26,058 nucleotides of DNA from a virus. Its lineage: Duplodnaviria; Caudoviricetes. The stretch covers positions 1 to 26,058 of IMG/VR virus record IMGVR_UViG_3300039208_000071, one strand, 5' to 3'. Both the position numbers and the translations under genes were made by a program. Position 1 is the first letter of the stretch; each line of letters starts with the position of its first letter. The notes below the pieces were generated by a model. It was not told the DNA's origin, did no database searches, and saw nothing but the letters and a program-made list of their open reading frames with translations. Positions 1-19,596 of this stretch are shown piece after piece.

Positions 1-360
1 GGGGAGCGAATAAATTTCGTTGTCGTCGGGATTAATGTAGCAGATCTTGCGAAGGATACGCTTGGCGTCTTTTGAGTACAGCCAATCGTTTACCATATCG
101 CAGCAACGGCTTTCCAAGCTGTCGTATTTGCTGCGCTTGTTATCCTCGCACCACTTGATAGCTTCTTCGAGCTTGGCGCGGTTAACGGGGCAGGGTTCGC
201 CTTGCTTGTTCGGCAAGGCATGCCAATTGTCGCAGCCGCCATGCCCGTCATTGCTAACGATGGCAGTGCGTACACCATCAATGTAAAGCGTAGCCTCGTA
301 GCAATGCGTTTCTTGTGAAGCGAATTCCGAGTGTTTGATGTTTTTTAGTTCTAAGTTCAT
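1..360 (-). CDS. Hypothetical early phage protein, partial (runs off the left edge)
   Basis: Hand translation from the ATG at 360 gives MNLELKNIKHSEFASQETHCYEATLYIDGVRTAIVSNDGHGGCD..., open to position 1. It is preceded by AGAGGAAACCAAACC. It is absent from the ORF track because no stop codon lies in the window. Confidence 0.85.
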   Translation of the reverse strand, partial: MNLELKNIKHSEFASQETHCYEATLYIDGVRTAIVSNDGHGGCDNWHALPNKQGEPCPVNRAKLEEAIKWCEDNKRSKYDSLESRCCDMVNDWLYSKDAKRILRKICYINPDDNEIYSLP

Positions 361-595
361 GGTTTGGTTTCCTCTATTCAGGGGTGAATTGAATGTCGAG
401 ATCATAAGCAAAACTACCATCGCTTAATTCTTCGGCGATCAGGTTGACGCGAATGTCGCTAACTTCGCAACCTTGGAAGTACACGTAATTGACGCCGTCA
501 GTCTTAGCGGTTTGCAATACTTCGATCAGGTCGTCGACGGTTTGTTCAACAGGCCACTGGCCGATAACTCTTCTATTCATGGTTTGGTTTCCTCT
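356..595 (-). repeat. Identical 20-bp translation-initiation segment in front of two consecutive genes (356-375 and 576-595)
   Basis: TTCATGGTTTGGTTTCCTCT occurs exactly twice and reads AGAGGAAACCAAACC-ATG-AA on the minus strand. Confidence 0.95.
374..580 (-). CDS. Small acidic hypothetical protein (68 aa, MNRRVIGQW...)
   Basis: The true start is probably the ATG at 580, directly behind the AGAGGA SD and downstream of a promoter. The track's extension to 757 crosses that promoter. Confidence 0.8.
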   Translation of the reverse strand: MNRRVIGQWPVEQTVDDLIEVLQTAKTDGVNYVYFQGCEVSDIRVNLIAEELSDGSFAYDLDIQFTPE

Positions 596-622
596 GTTTG
601 TTGATTGGTTACTACACTCCTT

Positions 623-650
623 ATTATAGATTATGTGCAGCAATATGCAA
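623..650 (-). promoter_or_regulatory. Leftward sigma70-type promoter
   Basis: The minus strand reads TTGCAT (650-645), a 16-nt spacer, then TATAAT (628-623). An AT-rich stretch lies upstream and the SD and ATG at 580 lie downstream. Confidence 0.75.
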
Positions 651-718
651 CACATTATTATATAGGGGCTAAGGCGACCGCGACCGACGCGCTCGGCACG
701 ACCACACGCAGCCGCGAG

Positions 719-735
719 CTGGCACGATCCTTGCA
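719..735 (+). promoter_or_regulatory. sigma54 (-24/-12) consensus site 1
   Basis: CTGGCACGATCCTTGCA fits YTGGCACG-N4-TTGCW, with GG(721-722)-N10-GC(733-734). Confidence 0.8.
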
Positions 736-738
736 TCA

Positions 739-754
739 TGCACGATTCATGCCA
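739..754 (-). promoter_or_regulatory. sigma54 consensus site 2 (opposite strand)
   Basis: The reverse complement is TGGCATGAATCGTGCA, with correct GG-N10-GC spacing. Confidence 0.65.
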
Positions 755-763
755 CATCGAGAG

Positions 764-780
764 TTGGCATCATCCTTGCA
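764..780 (+). promoter_or_regulatory. sigma54 consensus site 3
   Basis: TTGGCATCATCCTTGCA, with GG(766-767)-N10-GC(778-779). Confidence 0.75.
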
Positions 781-801
781 TGTTGTTGCTGATCGCTGAC
801 A

Positions 802-885
802 CTGACAGCTTGTAGGTCCAGGACTACAGCACGTAGGTCCAGGCTGACAGCGTGTAGGTGCCGGCTGACGGGGTGTAGGAGGGGG
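802..885. repeat. Four imperfect 21-bp tandem repeats (consensus about CTGACAGCGTGTAGGTCCAGG)
   Basis: Units lie at 802-822, 823-843, 844-864 and 865-885, and the GTAGG core recurs at an exact 21-bp period. Confidence 0.9.
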
Positions 886-1105
886 AAATAGTTTTTGGGG
901 GCGCTCGCTGGAACAAGTACCATATGAACCTAATCCACAGTCGCTCTTCGCTTTTTCGTTTTAACCCCTGGAAAATTTCCGCAACTATCAGGTTTTCCGA
1001 AATTGATAGATCGTTATCAGCGTTGATAGTGGTGCTTGCGGGTCCCATCCAGGCGAAAAATATAAATTTTTCGGAAATTTATAGCTTTCTTATATGTGCA
1101 GCATC

Positions 1106-1115
1106 GTGATACACT
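1106..1115 (+). promoter_or_regulatory. Putative rightward extended -10 promoter
   Basis: gTGaTACACT (TGn plus -10) follows an AT-rich tract about 85 nt upstream of the ATG at 1201. The -35 element is poor. Confidence 0.5.
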
Positions 1116-1124
1116 AAACCCACT

Positions 1125-1176
1125 CCCCGGAGCCGTCGAGTCAGAGGCGGTTCGCTGACTCGACGTAAGTCCGGGG
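1125..1176 (+). other. Long leader RNA hairpin
   Basis: An inner 11-bp stem (CGTCGAGTCAG 1134-1144 / CTGACTCGACG 1155-1165) and an outer 7-bp stem (CCCCGGA 1125-1131 / TCCGGGG 1170-1176) are separated by an internal loop. Confidence 0.8.
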
Positions 1177-1200
1177 GGCCAACTAACGAGAGAAACCAAT

Positions 1201-1629
1201 ATGTTTAGCTACTATTTCAAGTACCGAATGGCCAAAGACGCGCTCGAACGCGCGGACGAACTGGCCGAAGCAAAAACCAAGGAATGCCGCGAGTTCGCCA
1301 AGCGTTTATCGCAGTCGACTATCGACCTCGAGCTGGCAAACACGAAGGCCAACGACCAGGAACAAATAATTGCGCAGCTCAAACGCGAACTGAACGAGGC
1401 GAACGAAAAAATACGTGAGCAGACCGGCGCAGATTTGCTGGTCAATGCGCTGCGCGAACTCGGCGTCGTGCCGAAACCGGCGCCGAAGTATGATGCGTTC
1501 GCCGAACAGGCGCGGCTGCATCAATTGCTTTACAAGGATAACCGTGATTTAGGCAATCAACGCGCTGGCCAGTCGGCCCAGGCGCACAGAACGGGGTTGT
1601 CCGATGTGCTCGGGGGTGCGGTCCGATGA
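1201..1629 (+). CDS. Hypothetical coiled-coil protein (142 aa)
   Basis: ORF with a GAGAG leader, a heptad-like helical middle, and an ATGA overlap with the next gene. Confidence 0.8.
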   Translation: MFSYYFKYRMAKDALERADELAEAKTKECREFAKRLSQSTIDLELANTKANDQEQIIAQLKRELNEANEKIREQTGADLLVNALRELGVVPKPAPKYDAFAEQARLHQLLYKDNRDLGNQRAGQSAQAHRTGLSDVLGGAVR

Positions 1630-1805
1630 AAATCAACATGACGTTCGAGATTGACGACGAGGACCGGATGGCGTTAGCTATGCGCAACGGGACGAAAGGC
1701 CGCGCCGATCGAGAGACGATTGAGACGGAAATCAAGTCCCTGGTCGATACGGCTTTCGAGGATTACCGGTTCGATTACACCGTGTCAAAGGAGTTGGAAG
1801 CATGA
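1626..1805 (+). CDS. Small hypothetical protein (59 aa), possibly ribbon-helix-helix-like
   Basis: Hand translation gives MKINMTFEIDDEDRMALAMRNGTKGRADRETIETEIKSLVDTAFEDYRFDYTVSKELEA, with ATGA overlaps at both ends. It is not in the track, and the fold is a guess. Confidence 0.75.
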   Translation: MKINMTFEIDDEDRMALAMRNGTKGRADRETIETEIKSLVDTAFEDYRFDYTVSKELEA

Positions 1806-2005
1806 GCGAATACGACCCCGAGATATACAAGGAAGCCGCGCGGAAATGCTGCGAAGCGTTGGGGCAAAACCCCGATGAAATGGTAAGTTACCCGCACCCG
1901 AAAGGTTACGCGGTTCACGTGCAACATCCGCGCTGGATGTCCGTCGCCGTGGAAATGTACCGCCTTGATGTGATGATGGCTTGCCTGAAACGGTGGAAGG
2001 AATGA
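1802..2005 (+). CDS. Hypothetical protein (67 aa)
   Basis: AAGGAG lies upstream, and there is ATGA coupling on both sides. Confidence 0.75.
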   Translation: MSEYDPEIYKEAARKCCEALGQNPDEMVSYPHPKGYAVHVQHPRWMSVAVEMYRLDVMMACLKRWKE

Positions 2006-2175
2006 GCAAGCCCGATTTCTGGTACTGCCCGCGCTGTGTTTACCGGTTGACTGAAACCGAGTACCGTAGCAAACCGTTCGACTTTGTTTGCCCAAGGTGT
2101 TATCAAAACACGGAAAACCCGCCCAGGGTGATTGATTTCAAGCCGAACAACGCCGAAGCGAGGAAACGCCGATGA
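2002..2175 (+). CDS. Small zinc-ribbon protein (57 aa)
   Basis: Two CPRC knuckles (YCPRC...VCPRC). The ATG at 2002 overlaps the previous stop. Confidence 0.75.
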   Translation: MSKPDFWYCPRCVYRLTETEYRSKPFDFVCPRCYQNTENPPRVIDFKPNNAEARKRR

Positions 2176-2405
2176 AAGATTCAGAGGGTAACGTGATTAA
2201 AAAGGGCTGCCGGCTCAAGTCGAGCATGCACCCGGACGGGATTGAGATTATTTGCGACGAGGTCGGCCCGTCGACGGTGGCGTTGAAATCGCACCCGGAC
2301 GGACTGCCCTGGGTAATGACGCAGGAGGATTTGAATCACTCCAAATGGGTGGTCAGTAGTTACCCGTGGGTGGTCAGCAGCTACCCAAAAGCGACGCCGC
2401 CATGA
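2172..2405 (+). CDS. Hypothetical protein (77 aa)
   Basis: GAGGA SD, ATGA coupling, and a C-terminal WVVSSYP duplication. Confidence 0.75.
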   Translation: MKDSEGNVIKKGCRLKSSMHPDGIEIICDEVGPSTVALKSHPDGLPWVMTQEDLNHSKWVVSSYPWVVSSYPKATPP

Positions 2406-2668
2406 TCGACGCGTTAACACCGCTGGATTACCACATCGATGTATTCGTTGCACGGCTGCGTGCGGCGCTCTACGTGATGTTTCACCCGACCACGCGCATG
2501 TATGAGGAAACGAAAACGTTTGTGTGCCATCGGGACATCGAAACGCGCGAAGTGGTGCGCTGTGTTGCCGTCGTGAAAGGCTCTATTTTGCACGGCAACC
2601 TGCGCGCGGTGAAAATCTATTACGGCAAGCCCCAGGTACCGGTCGAATTGTTCAACGCTTCGCTGTAA
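2402..2668 (+). CDS. Hypothetical protein (88 aa)
   Basis: The ATG at 2402 overlaps the previous TGA. It is the last gene before an intergenic gap. Confidence 0.7.
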   Translation: MIDALTPLDYHIDVFVARLRAALYVMFHPTTRMYEETKTFVCHRDIETREVVRCVAVVKGSILHGNLRAVKIYYGKPQVPVELFNASL

Positions 2669-2689
2669 CTTCCCTTTTTCCGTTAACTG

Positions 2690-2700
2690 GTGGTAATATC
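2690..2700 (+). promoter_or_regulatory. Putative extended -10 promoter for the structural block
   Basis: gTGgTAATATc lies in the intergenic gap and resembles gTGgTATATTc at 13790-13800. Confidence 0.45.
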
Positions 2701-2731
2701 GCCCCGACTCGCGTTGCAACGAGGGCATACG

Positions 2732-3007
2732 ATGTCTTATCACCGAACCGGCGGCAAAGGCGGTACCCGAAATTCGCCGCGTGAGCGCCACGCGGATCGC
2801 TTCTTACCCAATTTCAACAAGTCCACGTCAGGCGGTCATTCCAGGAAGCCGAGCAAGGGCCGGCGCATGGACAACCCGGGCAAAGGCAGCAAACCGAAGG
2901 ACACGCCCGAGCAGCGCTACAAGCGCATGATGGGCGGGCAGAAAATGCGACGCACGGGCTTGGATCGCGCGTTAAGCGGCAAGTCTGGAATCACCGACAA
3001 GTACTAA
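2732..3007 (+). CDS. Small, highly basic Gly/Arg/Lys-rich protein (91 aa)
   Basis: GAGGG SD precedes the ATG at 2732 (MSYHRTGGKGG...). The composition suggests disorder, and there is TAATG coupling to the next gene. Confidence 0.8.
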   Translation: MSYHRTGGKGGTRNSPRERHADRFLPNFNKSTSGGHSRKPSKGRRMDNPGKGSKPKDTPEQRYKRMMGGQKMRRTGLDRALSGKSGITDKY

Positions 3008-3177
3008 TGCCGTTTACGAAGATGGCAAGCGGTAAGTACCGCAGCCCATCGGGGCGCGTGATGACCGGCGCCCAGGTTCGGGCTTACTACGCGAAGAAAC
3101 GCAAAGGTCCGAAACAAACTCCAAAAGCAAACAACCGACGGCGTAAACCAATGGGCAGGGCAGGAATGGGCGGATGA
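3007..3177 (+). CDS. Small basic protein (56 aa)
   Basis: Hand translation gives MPFTKMASGKYRSPSGRVMTGAQVRAYYAKKRKGPKQTPKANNRRRKPMGRAGMGG. It is coupled at both ends and is not in the track. Confidence 0.8.
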   Translation: MPFTKMASGKYRSPSGRVMTGAQVRAYYAKKRKGPKQTPKANNRRRKPMGRAGMGG

Positions 3178-4961
3178 ACGGCAGCACGGTAATCGCACAA
3201 CCTGGATCGGCGTTTGGCAGCGTCACGCTGCAACAGGCATACGATAACGCGTTTGCGTCGGATCCCCACATACTCGCGCAAACCGCGGACCCGATCCGGT
3301 TTCGCTCGGATGCGACCGGGCCGGTCTTGCAGGTTCAGGACACGGTCGGCGCCAACATTCTCGAGGTCGATGACACGTTCGTCGAGGTAGACGGTAATCT
3401 CAGGATTGTCGACGCGTTCGTCAACCACGGCGCAGCGAACTCGCTGACGCTCACAGACAACTACGATGCCGGCGTTCCGTTCATCGGCGGCGGCATCCTG
3501 TCGAACGGCACGGTCGGCTATTCAAACACGACCTGGATCTGGGCGTTGCTGCAAGAATCCAAGATTTACCAGGCAAGAGTCGGCCCTGGGTTTGCCGCGT
3601 TTACCCTGTTTAACGCGCTCGCGCGCATCGAGAACGATGGTAACTTTGACCTGGTTCAGGCGCTCGTTTTAAACAACGGCGTGCGCCATGCACGTACCAG
3701 CGCCGGTACCAGCACCACCGTTCAGAATATCGGTTTATCCAATAGCCCGTCGCTTCAAACCACGGTGCTCGGTGCGGTTATGACGAAGTCAACCGGCGAC
3801 ACGGCGGTTACGCACCGTCCTGGTTTTTCAACCGTCGGATTTTCCACCGTCAATTTCGGCACGTCTCGAGGACTTCACTACTTCGAACCAGCAGTAGTCT
3901 TGTTTGGTTCGGCAGCGGGCACGGAGAACGTCACGGCGGAAATCGCTGTCGATGTCGAGGCGTTGCCCAGTTTCGGTAACATCGTCAAAAACGCGCTGCG
4001 CTCACAACTGGCTGCCGCCAGTAACACGCGGGTAATTAACGCGCTCGGTACGGCGCAATCGGATTTCGGTGGCACGATCAACATGACCGCCGACCTCGTC
4101 GGTATTCAATACGGCGCCTCGCAAGACTGGTTCGAAGCCTGGGCCGGTGCGGGTTACAAGATCGAGCAAAATGCCAGTCCGCTTGAACAATTCCGTAAGT
4201 CGTTCCCGGCGGCGGGGCGCATGTTATTTGACTGGTCGAACGATATGGAATGGACGGTTAATTGCGTTGACGGTTTCAGCATCGGCGCGCAGTCAGGCGC
4301 GAACGGTAACCAGTACGGTAACGTGGTAACCAATGGCCTGACGCCCGCGGCGGCGGGTGATGCGACCGGTATTTTACTGACGCACGCCAACAACTTTGTC
4401 AACAACACGGTCGGCACACGTGGGCGCGTTTCGGCCTGGGTGATCAACGGGTTCAGCTATTCCAACTCGACCGGTACCGTTACTGATAGCGACACATTGA
4501 CCGTATCGGGCATGGTCACGAGCTCGCCGGGCGTGACGATTACCAATCGCCAATCGATCAACGTGATCGCAGGCCGGTCCAGGTTTCAAAGTGCCATGCA
4601 ATACAACCCGATCAACCCGGCGGCGTTGTCGGCGGGTGATAATAACGATTGGGCCGGGTTGCTGACGGGCAGTGCTAACAACGGCATGCGGCACTGGGCG
4701 CGAGTTACCCCGGACGGTGGCGGTACGTCGGTTATTACCGGTATCGACTCGTCATCGGCGCAAGACGGCGATTGTTTTAAGATTACCAACATTGGCACGG
4801 TCAACCTGACCATCGGCCATCAAGACGTTGCATCGTCGGCCAGTAACCGAATTATCAGCCCAACGGTAGCCGATTTTGTACTAGCGGCGACGCAAAGTTG
4901 TGAAGTAATATGGGATGCTGTGACTGATCGCTGGCGCTTACTTTACGGATCAGGAACTTGA
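3174..4961 (+). CDS. Putative virion fibre/spike protein (595 aa)
   Basis: Composition is G/T/N/A/S/V-rich and beta-like with very few Lys. The C-terminal ITGI...ITNIGTVNLTI...SNRI...WDAVTDRWR segment resembles phage fibre terminal domains. Confidence 0.6.
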   Translation: MNGSTVIAQPGSAFGSVTLQQAYDNAFASDPHILAQTADPIRFRSDATGPVLQVQDTVGANILEVDDTFVEVDGNLRIVDAFVNHGAANSLTLTDNYDAGVPFIGGGILSNGTVGYSNTTWIWALLQESKIYQARVGPGFAAFTLFNALARIENDGNFDLVQALVLNNGVRHARTSAGTSTTVQNIGLSNSPSLQTTVLGAVMTKSTGDTAVTHRPGFSTVGFSTVNFGTSRGLHYFEPAVVLFGSAAGTENVTAEIAVDVEALPSFGNIVKNALRSQLAAASNTRVINALGTAQSDFGGTINMTADLVGIQYGASQDWFEAWAGAGYKIEQNASPLEQFRKSFPAAGRMLFDWSNDMEWTVNCVDGFSIGAQSGANGNQYGNVVTNGLTPAAAGDATGILLTHANNFVNNTVGTRGRVSAWVINGFSYSNSTGTVTDSDTLTVSGMVTSSPGVTITNRQSINVIAGRSRFQSAMQYNPINPAALSAGDNNDWAGLLTGSANNGMRHWARVTPDGGGTSVITGIDSSSAQDGDCFKITNIGTVNLTIGHQDVASSASNRIISPTVADFVLAATQSCEVIWDAVTDRWRLLYGSGT

Positions 4962-6170: not shown

Positions 6171-6422
6171 GTGGGCGCCCCGAGCAGAATCGGAATCGCA
6201 ACGCACGGCTACCGCCGGGGTGATAGCAATCCGGGCAAGGTTTGCATTGCTACGCACGGTTATCGCTGCCTGGAACCGGATATTGTGGTCGATGACCCGT
6301 TCGGTGGCGGCATGGGCCACGGCGCCGTTATCCTGGACCAGATCGAACAGCGAAAGGATTTGCCCGTGGACCCGAAATATATAGCACTCGCCATCATCGC
6401 AATCGAGGAAATGAACGAATGA
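6171..6422 (+). CDS. Hypothetical protein (83 aa) with a duplicated IATHGYR motif
   Basis: GTG start 2 nt after the previous stop and an ATGA overlap downstream. The repeat copies differ only synonymously in this frame. Confidence 0.75.
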   Translation: MGAPSRIGIATHGYRRGDSNPGKVCIATHGYRCLEPDIVVDDPFGGGMGHGAVILDQIEQRKDLPVDPKYIALAIIAIEEMNE

Positions 6423-6841
6423 CGAGACTAAAAATATTACTGGCTGACTTGATGTTGATCCTGGTGATGTGCGCTAGCGTCAGCTGGCTGATCCTAATGT
6501 CACCTGCCCAGGCCAGCGGTTGCTACAAGTGCGTGACTAACGAATACCACACGACCGAAGTAACGCGTAAAGTGACCACGGTTACGGAAGGCATCAGCAA
6601 TTCGGATTTAGCTTCCGGGTTGACGATGACGGCTTCCGCCGGGGCGCATCAATTCGACTTTTCAACGACGGACTGGCAAGGTTCGATCACCGGCGCCTGG
6701 TATGATGACCATGACGCGGTTAGTTTCGGTATCGGCAAGCGTTTCAGCGAGGACTTTTTGCCGAATGTGCTATTACACGGTAATTACACGCAAAACGGCG
6801 ACGAACAACTATTTGTGATAGGCGGCACGTTTCGGTTTTGA
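6419..6841 (+). CDS. Secreted outer-membrane protein with a YadA-like (trimeric autotransporter) anchor domain
   Basis: An N-terminal hydrophobic signal ends in AQA. A helix (DLASGLTMTASAG) is followed by four amphipathic strands (WQGSITGAWY, DAVSFGIGKRF, VLLHGNY, FVIGGTFRF) ending in a terminal Phe. Confidence 0.75.
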   Translation: MTRLKILLADLMLILVMCASVSWLILMSPAQASGCYKCVTNEYHTTEVTRKVTTVTEGISNSDLASGLTMTASAGAHQFDFSTTDWQGSITGAWYDDHDAVSFGIGKRFSEDFLPNVLLHGNYTQNGDEQLFVIGGTFRF

Positions 6842-7718: not shown

Positions 7719-8242
7719 GCTGGAAATCAATTGTTAAACGCGTTGCGCCGGTCCTGGGTACCGCGTTAGGCGGTCCGTTCGGCGGTATGGCGGTCAAGGC
7801 CATCACCAGCGCGGTGCTGCCCGAGGATAAACAGGGGCTTACCGGCGAGGCGCTGGAAAAAGAACTAGAAACCGCGATCAGCGGGAACCCCGAGGCGCTG
7901 TTAAAACTGCGCGAAGCCGACCAGGCGTTTGATGTCGAAATGAAAAAGCTCGATGTTGATATCCTGGAAATTGCGGCCAAAGACCGAGACAGCGCGCGCC
8001 AGTTGGCGAAAGATACGACTTTGCTGCCGCAGATGGTGCTGTCGGCGGTGTACGTTATCGCTTTCGCGGTGATACTGGTGGCGGTCATTACCGGTAAGGT
8101 TGAGCTGGCCGGCTTTCAGCAAAACATGGCCAACATGCTGATCGGTATTCTATCGGCGGGCCTGGTGCAAATTATGAACTTCTTTTTCGGCAGTTCCGCC
8201 GGATCGAAACAAAAAACCGAGAAGCTGGCCAATGGAAAATGA
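7715..8242 (+). CDS. Putative holin (GTA 3TM-holin-like)
   Basis: APVLGTALGGP N-terminus, DRDSAR, two TM helices and an FFFGSS motif. It is adjacent to the endolysin. Confidence 0.75.
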   Translation: MSWKSIVKRVAPVLGTALGGPFGGMAVKAITSAVLPEDKQGLTGEALEKELETAISGNPEALLKLREADQAFDVEMKKLDVDILEIAAKDRDSARQLAKDTTLLPQMVLSAVYVIAFAVILVAVITGKVELAGFQQNMANMLIGILSAGLVQIMNFFFGSSAGSKQKTEKLANGK

Positions 8243-8429
8243 AATCATGCTGGTGCTGGTTACCGCCGCAATAACTGGTGCGTTATCGACGGTCGGTACC
8301 GTGATTGCGTTGCGCGTTCACATCGGGTATCTGCGTGACCATATCGACAAGATCGAAGCAAATTTGACTCGCGTTCACACGCGCATCGACAACCTGATCG
8401 TTGCGAATGCGCGACCACTTGAGGAGTAA
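8232..8429 (+). CDS. Small membrane protein (TM plus short coiled coil)
   Basis: N-terminal hydrophobic helix and heptad tail, located in the lysis cluster. Confidence 0.75.
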   Translation: MENEIMLVLVTAAITGALSTVGTVIALRVHIGYLRDHIDKIEANLTRVHTRIDNLIVANARPLEE

Positions 8430-8434
8430 ACACA

Positions 8435-8620
8435 ATGAGCGGACACATCGGGCACGGCCCATATGAACCGAAAGCGCCGAAAGCGCCGAAAGAAACAAAG
8501 TTGAAACAAGCCTACAAGGATAAAAAAGACCCGAAGAAGGAAGGCGCGCCGACCGGCACTAAGGCTGTTCCAGGCGTAGCACCGAAAAAGAAAGCGGCGG
8601 CGAAAAAGAAAGCCAAATAA
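8435..8620 (+). CDS. Lys/Ala/Pro-rich small basic protein (61 aa)
   Basis: GAGGAG SD. It carries PKAPKAPK and PKKKAAAKKKAK, a histone-H1-like composition, and has TAATG coupling to TerS. Confidence 0.8.
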   Translation: MSGHIGHGPYEPKAPKAPKETKLKQAYKDKKDPKKEGAPTGTKAVPGVAPKKKAAAKKKAK

Positions 8621-9174
8621 TGGCGAAGGTTGCACTAAAGATAGGGATGGCGGGCAAGGATGGCATGGGCGACGAGGCGATCATGCGGGCGTCGGCTAAT
8701 CGGGCGAATACGAAGTATACGCCGGAAGTTGCCAGGGTGATCTGTGAACGGATCATGGCGAAGGAAACGCTGACGAAGATTTGCAAAGATCCTGCCATGC
8801 CGTCGATCCGCACGGTCATTCGCTGGTTTGCCGATCCTGAGCGCGCGGACTTTCGGGATATGTACTATTACGCGCGCCGGGTTTGTGCGGAAATGCTGGT
8901 CGATGAAACGATGGACATTCTCGATGATAACAGCGAGGACTGGATACAGACGTTCAACAAAAACGGCGAACCAAACGGTTGGAAGCCGAACCACGAAACC
9001 GCGGCGAATAAAAAACTGCGAATCGATACGATCAAGTGGTTTGCTATGAAAATGATCCCGCGGATTTACGGTGAAAAGCTCGAGGTCGAACACGGCGTGA
9101 CCGGTGACCTGGCTGATTTAATCCGTCAATCGTCAAACCAGAGCAGTGGCCTACCGACGCCGGTGAATGATTGA
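8620..9174 (+). CDS. terS: Terminase small subunit (Sf6 gp1-like)
   Basis: KYTPEVARVICERI...ICKDPAMPS..TV.RW HTH and LRIDTIKW...P..YGEK motifs, directly upstream of TerL. Confidence 0.9.
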   Translation: MAKVALKIGMAGKDGMGDEAIMRASANRANTKYTPEVARVICERIMAKETLTKICKDPAMPSIRTVIRWFADPERADFRDMYYYARRVCAEMLVDETMDILDDNSEDWIQTFNKNGEPNGWKPNHETAANKKLRIDTIKWFAMKMIPRIYGEKLEVEHGVTGDLADLIRQSSNQSSGLPTPVND

Positions 9175-17459: not shown

Positions 17460-18130
17460 CCACGATTTCTCAGTTACAGGTTAGCGTCGACTCCTGGTTG
17501 GTTCGTAACGATGTCGCGGTTACTGGATCCGATTTTAACCAGATTTTGCTGATCGCAGAATCCAGTATCGCTCGAAATTATCGCTTTCTGGTTCAGGAAG
17601 TGACAACGACCCTGACGTTCACGGGTCGATCAGAAGATTTGCCTGCGGACTTTCTGGAAGTTCGTAACCCATTCATAGATGACAATATCCGAAAATTCGA
17701 ATACCAGACGCCGCAGGCAATCCGAGAAAATAGCGCTTGGGCAAACGGTCGAGCCGGGGCGTTTTACACACTCGAGGGAAGCGAGGACACGGTTAATAAC
17801 CCGGCGGTTGACGACCGGGTCAAGATGACTATTGCCGGGCCAGCGTCGGCGAGCTCACCCCTATCGGTTGACGTGAACTACTATCGGAGATTCCCTGCGC
17901 TTGATACCGGCACGCCGACAGATTCGAACTGGTTGTTAACGCAGCATTATGACGTGTACCTGTATGAAACCTTGCACGCGGCAGCGGTGTACCTCCAGGA
18001 AAGGGAACTCGCGGCCGATTATCTGGGGCTGTGCCAGGGTTTACGTAATGAGTTCAAACTGCAAGAAAATCGCAAGCGCTTTGCTGCCGTGCCGAAACAG
18101 GCTTACGCCAACCCGAGGGGTGTTGTATGA
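17456..18130 (+). CDS. Head-tail adaptor protein
   Basis: N-terminal helix (LQVSVDSWLVRND), LPADFLE, and NWLLTQHYDVYLY..L..A..YL. Its position before the nozzle fits. Confidence 0.8.
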   Translation: MTTISQLQVSVDSWLVRNDVAVTGSDFNQILLIAESSIARNYRFLVQEVTTTLTFTGRSEDLPADFLEVRNPFIDDNIRKFEYQTPQAIRENSAWANGRAGAFYTLEGSEDTVNNPAVDDRVKMTIAGPASASSPLSVDVNYYRRFPALDTGTPTDSNWLLTQHYDVYLYETLHAAAVYLQERELAADYLGLCQGLRNEFKLQENRKRFAAVPKQAYANPRGVV

Positions 18131-19596
18131 CGGTCCCGCAGGAAGTCCCGTTTGGCGAATGGTTACCCGACCTGCCAGCGCATAACAACCCTGGTGCGTT
18201 GATTGCGTTAAACGTGATCCCGCAGTTGAAGAGTTATCGCAGCCTGAATTCGCTCGCTTCGTTTTCCAATGCGTTAACAGGGGCTTGCTTGGGCACGTTC
18301 TGGGCGCCGGCAGCTAACGGCGACATATTCAATTTCGCCGGCGACACGTCTGCACTCTATAACCTTGTTTCCGGCACAACCTGGACCGATATCAGCGGCG
18401 TCAGTGCGCCTTACACCGCATCGAACTGGGAATTTACCAAGTTCGGTGAAACGATTCTGGCGGTCAATGACGATGACCCGATGCAGAAATACGAAATGAA
18501 TGTTGACGCGGTGTTTAGCGATCAGCCTGGAACCCCGCCGGACGCTGCGCACATCGCGACCGTTCGTGATTTCGTAATGATCGGCGATATACCGAGTCAG
18601 GGGCCGAACTTCGTGCGCTGGTCAGGCTACAATAACTCTGAAATATGGGACCCGTCGATTCGCACTCAGTCGGATTTCCAGGAACTTTTCGGGCGCGGTG
18701 GCCGCGTTCAACGGATCGTTCCAGGCGACTATGCGGTCATCTTCACCGAACAATCGATCTGGCGCGCGGACTATGTTGGCCCGCCGGTTATCTTCCAGTT
18801 CGACGAAGTCGACCAGAAACGCGGTACGCCGGCGCCGAATAGCGTTATCTGGCAAGGTTCGCACGTGTGGTATTGGGGTTGGGACAACTTCTATTATTTC
18901 AACGGCAGAGAGTCGAAGCCAATCAGTAACAACAAAGTTTCGCGGTGGTTCCAGTTGAATGCTTCAAGTGACGCCTGGGATTCGATGCGGGGTGCCTTAG
19001 ATCGGCTAAATCGACTTGTTATCTGGGCTTTTCGGACAAATGCGGCGAATTCGATCAATAACAACCTAATTATTTACAACTGGGCGGCAAATAAATGGTC
19101 GTATGCGGTGATCGATACGCAAGTCATCGACGAATACGTATCGCCCGGTTTCACGCTCGACGACCTTGACGGGCCGTTACCGGGCGGCATCGATGCGGAC
19201 TCAATTCTGGTGGATTCCAGCCAATTCCAGGGCGGCGGCATTAATATCCAGGCGTTCAACGCGTCGAACGAGGCGGCGACTTTCGACGGAACGCCGCTCC
19301 AGGCAACCATCGACACGAAAGAATTGAGCAGCCCGACGCAACAGCGGATGATGGTGAATTCACTGCGGCCGATGATCGAGGCAACCGGTTCGACGACGAT
19401 TAACATGCAGGTCGGCACTCGAGACCAGTTAACCGAAAACCCGTCGTTTACGATGCAGCAAGGGCAGAACGGTATCAACGGCGAGGTCAACGTGCGGGTG
19501 AACTCAAGATATCAGCGCTATCGGTGTATCATCGACGGCGGTTTCGACCACGCTAACGGCGTGAAAGCAAACGTAAGACAAGCGGGGCGCAGGTAA
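18127..19596 (+). CDS. Tail nozzle / head-stabilisation hub (P22 gp10-like beta-propeller)
   Basis: FGEWLPD start, WEFTKFG, VRWSG.N...W and V.SRYQR motifs; beta-rich, and it follows the adaptor. Confidence 0.8.
   Translation: MTVPQEVPFGEWLPDLPAHNNPGALIALNVIPQLKSYRSLNSLASFSNALTGACLGTFWAPAANGDIFNFAGDTSALYNLVSGTTWTDISGVSAPYTASNWEFTKFGETILAVNDDDPMQKYEMNVDAVFSDQPGTPPDAAHIATVRDFVMIGDIPSQGPNFVRWSGYNNSEIWDPSIRTQSDFQELFGRGGRVQRIVPGDYAVIFTEQSIWRADYVGPPVIFQFDEVDQKRGTPAPNSVIWQGSHVWYWGWDNFYYFNGRESKPISNNKVSRWFQLNASSDAWDSMRGALDRLNRLVIWAFRTNAANSINNNLIIYNWAANKWSYAVIDTQVIDEYVSPGFTLDDLDGPLPGGIDADSILVDSSQFQGGGINIQAFNASNEAATFDGTPLQATIDTKELSSPTQQRMMVNSLRPMIEATGSTTINMQVGTRDQLTENPSFTMQQGQNGINGEVNVRVNSRYQRYRCIIDGGFDHANGVKANVRQAGRR

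Follow-up and report, generated by a model that had tools for sequence, protein, structure and literature searches.

The 62-bp stretch at positions 719–780 of the window, as the whole analysed DNA of 26,058 nucleotides is called here, harbors three sigma54-type sites in +/-/+ orientation and is a small, minimal member of a widespread phage class of sigma54 consensus-site arrays. Judged from the sequence, the triplet may serve to park non-firing complexes of host sigma54 or its holoenzyme, which would form a barrier on DNA that is early and probably close to a genome end; this is the best explanation found and is put forward tentatively. As an earlier note on this DNA had stated, all three sites are located in non-coding DNA and show exact GG-N10-GC spacing, i.e. 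the arrangement required of the sigma54 consensus (GG at -24, GC at -12, exactly 10 bp between them). The sites and the control region around them comprise the following features, given with coordinates and strand.

377–580 and 4–360, minus strand: two small leftward ORFs, early-like by position, with identical leaders
623–650, minus strand: predicted sigma70-like promoter for the leftward genes, TTGCAT-16-TATAAT, 69 bp from site 1
693–710, plus strand: degenerate fourth site with GG at 695–696 and GC at 708–709 (N11), its frame beginning 26 bp ahead of site 1
719–735, plus strand: site 1, sigma54-type, CTGGCACGATCCTTGCA, 13/13 (full consensus), GG-N10-GC
739–755, minus strand: site 2, sigma54-type, GTGGCATGAATCGTGCA, 11/13 (weakest of the triplet), GG-N10-GC
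764–780, plus strand: site 3, sigma54-type, TTGGCATCATCCTTGCA, 12/13, GG-N10-GC
802–879, plus strand: three to four tandem repeats of 21 bp adjoining the array; beyond them, up to about 1090, tracts rich in G and in A/T
1087–1115, plus strand: extended -10 sigma70-like promoter candidate, TTCTTA-17-TACACT, read by eye, ahead of ORF 1201

Scores denote matches out of 13 to the consensus YTGGCAYRNNNNTTGCW, which agrees with the base frequencies of 507 distinct sites on other contigs. Sites 1 and 2 are positioned head-to-head at an offset of 20, and the 3-bp gap between these convergent sites described previously is confirmed; site 2 is directed at the leftward early-like genes and stands back-to-back with site 3 at an offset of 25. 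The mis-spaced N11 element upstream of site 1 is also found as reported and probably represents a decayed former site. Within the window the exact pattern TGGCAY-N5-TTGC has two matches, which are sites 1 and 3. Loose matches with two mismatches are not enriched over the whole window (56 seen versus 49.3 expected), and not one of 300 dinucleotide shuffles of the window contained even two sites of at least 12/14 within 100 bp. The array is spanned without a letter change by contigs of two sequencing runs, which does not amount to independent support since both belong to one study and the contigs are possibly the window's own source.

Two further 12/13 sites of this phage, over 44.5 kb, fall within coding sequence. 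An 11/13 match on the minus strand in terS (8782–8798) is probably a by-product of coding, as the terS genes of relatives contain no site of at least 12/14 there. A structured RNA, hairpin or cruciform is ruled out by the unremarkable folding of the array stretch (z = -0.44), by the lack of any Rfam match up to E = 1 and by the independently varying arms of arrays elsewhere.

The motif recurs widely in viruses. Extrapolation from 7 of 64 parts (126 listed) puts the viral stretches with same-strand pairs 21–51 bp apart at about 1200, versus 69 in a control with one extra base per site; for head-to-head pairs the estimate is about 720 (from 11 of 64 parts), versus 4 when the control spacing is off by one base. 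The complete +/-/+ pattern, for which the search was modelled on this window, gave about 150 viral matches corresponding to 122 loci and 46 crude lineages, a lineage count that may be too high because 42 of the 122 loci had little flanking DNA. The same pattern was matched five times in 185,579 prokaryotic genomes (596 Gb), in all five cases beside phage-like genes (two near terL, three near other PHROG hits). On these sequence comparisons, the N10 spacing is under selection. In blastn searches of cultured phages with the junction or the array only chance-level matches were obtained, and the long arrays L110 and L067 returned nothing useful as queries.

For the analysis of array geometry one locus per lineage was taken from 93 lineages, using a pattern that required no opposite-strand site. 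Convergent offsets lie at 18–23 bp in 35 of 43 cases (20 in the window) and divergent offsets at 20–25 bp in 22 of 38 (25 in the window). Among 141 same-strand spacings of 21–62 bp none is below 24 bp and 69 are at 24–30 bp, a pattern suggestive of bulky protein molecules bound next to one another; no same-strand spacing is seen more often in other arrays than the 26 bp separating the relic from site 1. There is weak helical phasing past the first peak, with p = 0.04 for a period of 10.5 bp and 0.007 for 11 bp. Paired sites resemble each other in their free spacer bases no more than random pairs do (1.57 versus 1.66 of 5, 163 pairs), so that the pairs are neither hairpins nor recent duplications and it is the consensus itself that is kept. 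The window thus displays the geometry of the class, with at least two non-coding N10 sites and offsets of 18–23 bp (+/-), 20–25 bp (-/+) and 24–30 bp (same strand).

The arrays also occupy a characteristic place. Within 33 lineage representatives terL was located in 19, at 0.9–7.3 kb from the array and reading away from it in 19 of 19, in a search of only 84 ORFs of 330–750 aa with the first 280 residues of each. This figure overstates the case and a null of 50% is too lenient, because coding sequence fills most of the region downstream of terL and any large gap would fall upstream. Crude ORF calls gave 14 divergent, 11 tandem and 4 convergent flanks in the 33 representatives, with 4 cut off. 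Terminases, endolysins and two unknown families recur among 140 ORFs beside 80 arrays, while most of these ORFs are unmatched. The motif GGGTCC was considered as an end marker near arrays and rejected, its occurrences being too few (6 of 19 on the terL side versus 2 of 19 on the other). The stretches read of MW202796 and AM24, reached via the phrog_1392 neighbour, contain no array.

In the window the array is likewise positioned upstream of the terminase operon, in a 620-bp gap separating the leftward small genes from the rightward operon. On the rightward side, ORF 1201 and the operon pass through lysis genes to terS (8620) and terL (9171) and on to the genes for portal and capsid. The terL start is 8.4 kb from the array and the gene reads away from it, with the leftward small genes on the opposite flank. 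The genes for endolysin, an Sf6-like TerS, TerL, portal, scaffold, capsid and ejection proteins all run rightward. An 18.5-kb record (G006) overlaps window bases 1–99 with 100% identity, and its first ORF resembles a continuation of the window's last, glycine-rich ORF; overlap and apparent continuation together indicate that the window and G006 probably make up a nearly complete genome of 44.5 kb. The source is apparently a lytic podovirus of about this size. The G006 half encodes PolA, an SNF2 helicase, a primase-polymerase, two DNA methylases, a Tad6-like Thoeris inhibitor, RadC/JAB and a PAPS-reductase-like protein (the last three at L263:13037-13666, 17768-18280 and 7968-8723). Neither an integrase nor a sigma54 activator nor a sigma54-like domain was found among the scanned ORFs (39 from the window; 26; 28; and 7 more from G006), and the previous statement that no activator is encoded in the window extends, for these ORFs, to about 44.5 kb of the genome.

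Several other elements of this region deserve description. Over the 44.5 kb the 10-bp word ATGTGCAGCA is found only at 633–642 and 1094–1103, in each case within the spacer of a candidate sigma70 promoter, and is a possible operator. The two leftward ORFs are preceded at 356–378 and 576–598 by almost the same leader, about 20 bp long and containing a ribosome site, which recurs in G006 (L263:17695-17715); a similar copy is located at 1180–1199 before ORF 1201. The leader of ORF 1201 also contains a perfect 11-bp inverted repeat with a 10-nt loop at 1134–1165. Further downstream, 6419–6841 encodes a 140-aa ORF without Pfam or PHROG match that has an apparent signal peptide and a C-terminal F which, by eye, is outer-membrane-anchor-like. 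The 21-bp repeats together with the adjacent tracts are a candidate end or origin signal. Contig depth across 1–4000 steps down from about 9,300 to about 350, with about 350–500 beyond 2.4–2.7 kb in both deep runs, reflecting either amplification bias or an over-represented subgenomic molecule. Motif searches of 1–1300 gave no LexA-, Fur-, IHF-, Chi- or parS-like match (IHF at one mismatch) and one weak DnaA-like match with one mismatch.

In the preferred reading host sigma54 or its holoenzyme would dock on the sites as closed complexes from which no transcript is made. Where early and late genes meet, these silent complexes would then form a protein barrier effective in both directions, and in this phage that place would probably be near the DNA end that enters first. 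The barrier could be directed against read-through transcription or against a nuclease moving along the DNA, or it could act on slippage or anchoring during entry. The alternating orientation, tight packing and fixed early/late place of the sites are best fitted by such a bound, silent and bidirectional barrier. According to excerpts of two articles (PMC7057263, PMC3844500), the closed complex made by the sigma54 holoenzyme is stable and fires only with an AAA+ activator, and the parts of a third (PMC6028918) describe its contacts to -24 and -12 with the downstream DNA at the cleft. If correct, parking would be a cis-acting use of a host factor for which the phage has to encode no protein. It is conceivable, if rather doubtful, that many unrelated phages employ the activator-locked sigma54 polymerase more generally as a structural clamp shielding or holding the first-entering end, with the present triplet, which is among the smallest arrays, as its minimal unit; such a clamp would represent a non-transcriptional use of a sigma factor.

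An alternative role as conditional promoters is considered unlikely. Here transcription would be set off by an activator of the host, for instance PspF or NtrC, from site 2 towards the early genes or from sites 1 and 3 towards the late operon, and the overlapping pair would act as an either/or switch tied to stress of the host. The near-consensus sites do face genes on both flanks, 14 of the 33 representatives have divergent flanks (crude ORF calls), and there is a precedent in phage YuA, which is reported (PMC10914365) to use a sigma54-like promoter; excerpts of another (PMC3844500) indicate that activators can work from distant enhancers. Against this, sigma70-like promoters already precede both flanking operons. 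That of the leftward genes was obtained from a scan for the consensus motif, a simple promoter scan not reporting it, and that of ORF 1201, equally missed by the simple scan, was read by eye; the earlier claim that the nearest plus-strand gene is more than 400 bp away and has its own promoter agrees with ORF 1201 and the candidate at 1087–1115. Moreover, sites 1 and 2 each cover the start point that the usual -12 numbering predicts for the other (about 746 for site 1, about 728 for site 2), so that the two presumably cannot be open at once. The predicted start of site 3 (about 791) is free of other sites, but is about 410 nt from ORF 1201 with its own candidate promoter. Arrays elsewhere reach 9–23 sites in mixed orientation, well beyond the need of a promoter, prokaryotic genomes hardly ever show the +/-/+ layout, and 1–1300 has no IHF-like site at one mismatch. 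The earlier judgement that these sites are unlike ordinary promoters is upheld by their mutually overlapping predicted starts, the lack of an activator among the ORFs scanned and a geometry that is typical of phages and almost absent from prokaryotic genomes.

Among the larger arrays, one comprises 23 sites in about 1 kb (L110:1-1066). Another has 10 sites in almost entirely alternating orientation (L390:31-305); its short contig had been placed by binning in the assembly of a bacterial genome.

Quite improbable is a function as a sponge, in which replicated copies would jointly titrate RpoN and thereby dampen the Psp response, motility or other sigma54 regulons. The near-consensus quality of the sites and their number of up to 23 in some arrays would suit this role, as would the link of Salmonella Psp, and possibly cas, genes to sigma54 given in excerpts of PMC3844500. 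However, only three sites per genome are present here, and they are placed where timing suggests the earliest phase of infection; the fixed place of the arrays upstream of terL or in terminal repeats and their narrow offsets would be left unexplained. RpoN titration appears the weakest of the three functions proposed in the earlier note, because three sites per incoming genome could bind very little RpoN and a sponge would need no fixed position. Phage resistance linked to rpoN is ascribed to receptor loss, glutamine or RpoS in the consulted sections of PMC11877940 and PMC8744999.

Very unlikely is an operator or iteron for a phage terminase, initiator or repressor whose resemblance to sigma54 sites would be due to chance. 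The sites do adjoin the 21-bp repeats, in a region that is likely an end or an origin, and among the G006 genes is one for a ribbon-helix-helix protein with a weak match (L263:11344-11601), yet the same consensus is found next to several unrelated terminase families, the phage's other two 12/13 sites are intragenic and the scanned ORFs contain no sigma54-like domain. A decaying or neutral remnant of a swapped control region, unused in the present host, would account for the mis-spaced site, the imperfect site 2 and the lack of an array in the closest relative, but is highly improbable given that exact N10 is kept in three sites despite differing spacers and that both offsets fall in the commonest ranges.

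This closest complete relative (G001) has a terL 75% identical to that of the window and the same divergent layout. Its junction contains no site of at least 10/13, and no cluster is found anywhere in its genome, which points to an accessory role of the element. The junction of G001 harbors a 43-bp perfect duplication as well as G-rich and A/T-rich tracts like those of the window. Clusters were also absent from all 25 terL loci, most of which are too short to reach the junction, and from all 30 loci of the early ORF 4–360. Conservation in the nearest relatives, which the earlier note had itself chosen as a test of its proposal, is accordingly not seen.

Cultured carriers were found by motif search and not by position. 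The sites of the Vibrio phage VpV262 are described below together with the known systems; here the placement of sites relative to genome ends is compared. VF16 has all 8 of its 8 exact matches within its two 7.4-kb terminal repeats; its head-to-head pair is among them, though at 4.5 kb from the end, a distance that counts against the preferred reading. Thalassa has 4 of 4 sites in its duplicated ends. SYP carries 7 of 8 sites in the first 12 kb, with one pair at offset 19, in a stretch of record that bears no annotation of the ends, and Amme-3 contains scattered sites only. No array was detected in RIO-1, ICP2, LUZ24, SIO1, CVT22, T5 or YuA (first 50 kb). Closeness to a genome end is seen from record annotation for VpV262 and VF16, and the earlier idea of an end-related role gains support from these two phages. 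For the phage studied here the terminase points the other way: TerS is Sf6-like, and the nearest cultured relatives of TerL are Bcep22-like (40–45%). Bcep22-like phages and Sf6 are headful packagers, and with relatives of this type the end of the present phage need not lie at the junction. If phages do array these sites to park protein and not to make RNA, a function would be assigned to non-coding stretches near phage ends, and arrays could help to locate termini or to recognize uncultured phages whose host possesses RpoN. Such sites are carried by cultured phages whose hosts are named (VpV262, VF16, Thalassa, Ceto and SYP), which makes the idea directly testable.

In order to place the array among known systems, it was compared with bacterial sigma54 promoters and with phages that engage sigma54. 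Bacterial -24/-12 promoters such as pspA, glnA and rtcBA, as presented in excerpts of PMC3844500, PMC7057263 and PMC6028918, share the consensus with GG-N10-GC, and a like closed complex is expected on the window's sites. Unlike these promoters, the sites of the window alternate in orientation, have overlapping starts and are located beside sigma70-like promoters without an activator gene. The intragenic sigma54 sites of Salmonella, whose function is uncertain and for which the passages drawn from PMC3844500 propose repression or transcriptional interference, are similar in not being assigned a promoter role; they are separate and lie inside chromosomal genes, whereas the phage arrays are intergenic, narrowly spaced and located in control regions. 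The sigma54-like promoter of YuA (AM749441) is the nearest published phage case, YuA being reported (PMC10914365) to engage host sigma54. Its sites differ in being single annotated promoters of the late region, with none of at least 12/13 and no array in the first 50 kb. In a search of titles and abstract openings, with subscription literature mostly outside its scope, no published description of such phage arrays was found, and a phage array with this geometry apparently constitutes an undescribed class, the individual site being textbook.

Non-coding DNA at phage ends offers a further comparison. By eye, DnaA-like and LexA-like boxes are recognized in the terminal non-coding DNA of Thalassa (L264:300-880), Ceto (L265:280-860) and T5 (L267:9140-10200), and Fur-like boxes in the terminal regions of Ceto and T5; to these the Vibrio phages add sigma54-type sites and T5 none. 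These boxes are presumably sites of the proteins named, and the same applies to the boxes read by eye in the T5 injection-stop region. The latter region (NC_005859) is, like the junction of the window, non-coding first-transferred DNA with apparent boxes for host proteins; T5 has no sigma54 site of at least 12/13 in its first 12 kb, and the window in turn has no LexA-, Fur- or IHF-like box in 1–1300. The T5-like phages VF16, Thalassa and Ceto carry the same motif as the window in their terminal repeats, but as single or paired sites.

VpV262 shares with the window the motif, a +/-/+ core between the end and the first early gene, and the divergent plan of early and late genes. Its six sites at 172, 213 and 254 (plus strand), 276 (minus), 309 (plus) and 331 (minus) span 172–347 ahead of ORF1, compared to three sites and a relic in the window, and only two more 11/13 sites occur across its other 45.6 kb. 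The record stretches read for VpV262, VF16, Thalassa and Ceto carry no annotation of these sites. The terminal repeat of VpV262 is annotated at 1–138, and the first site of the array is thus located 34 bp inward of this repeat.
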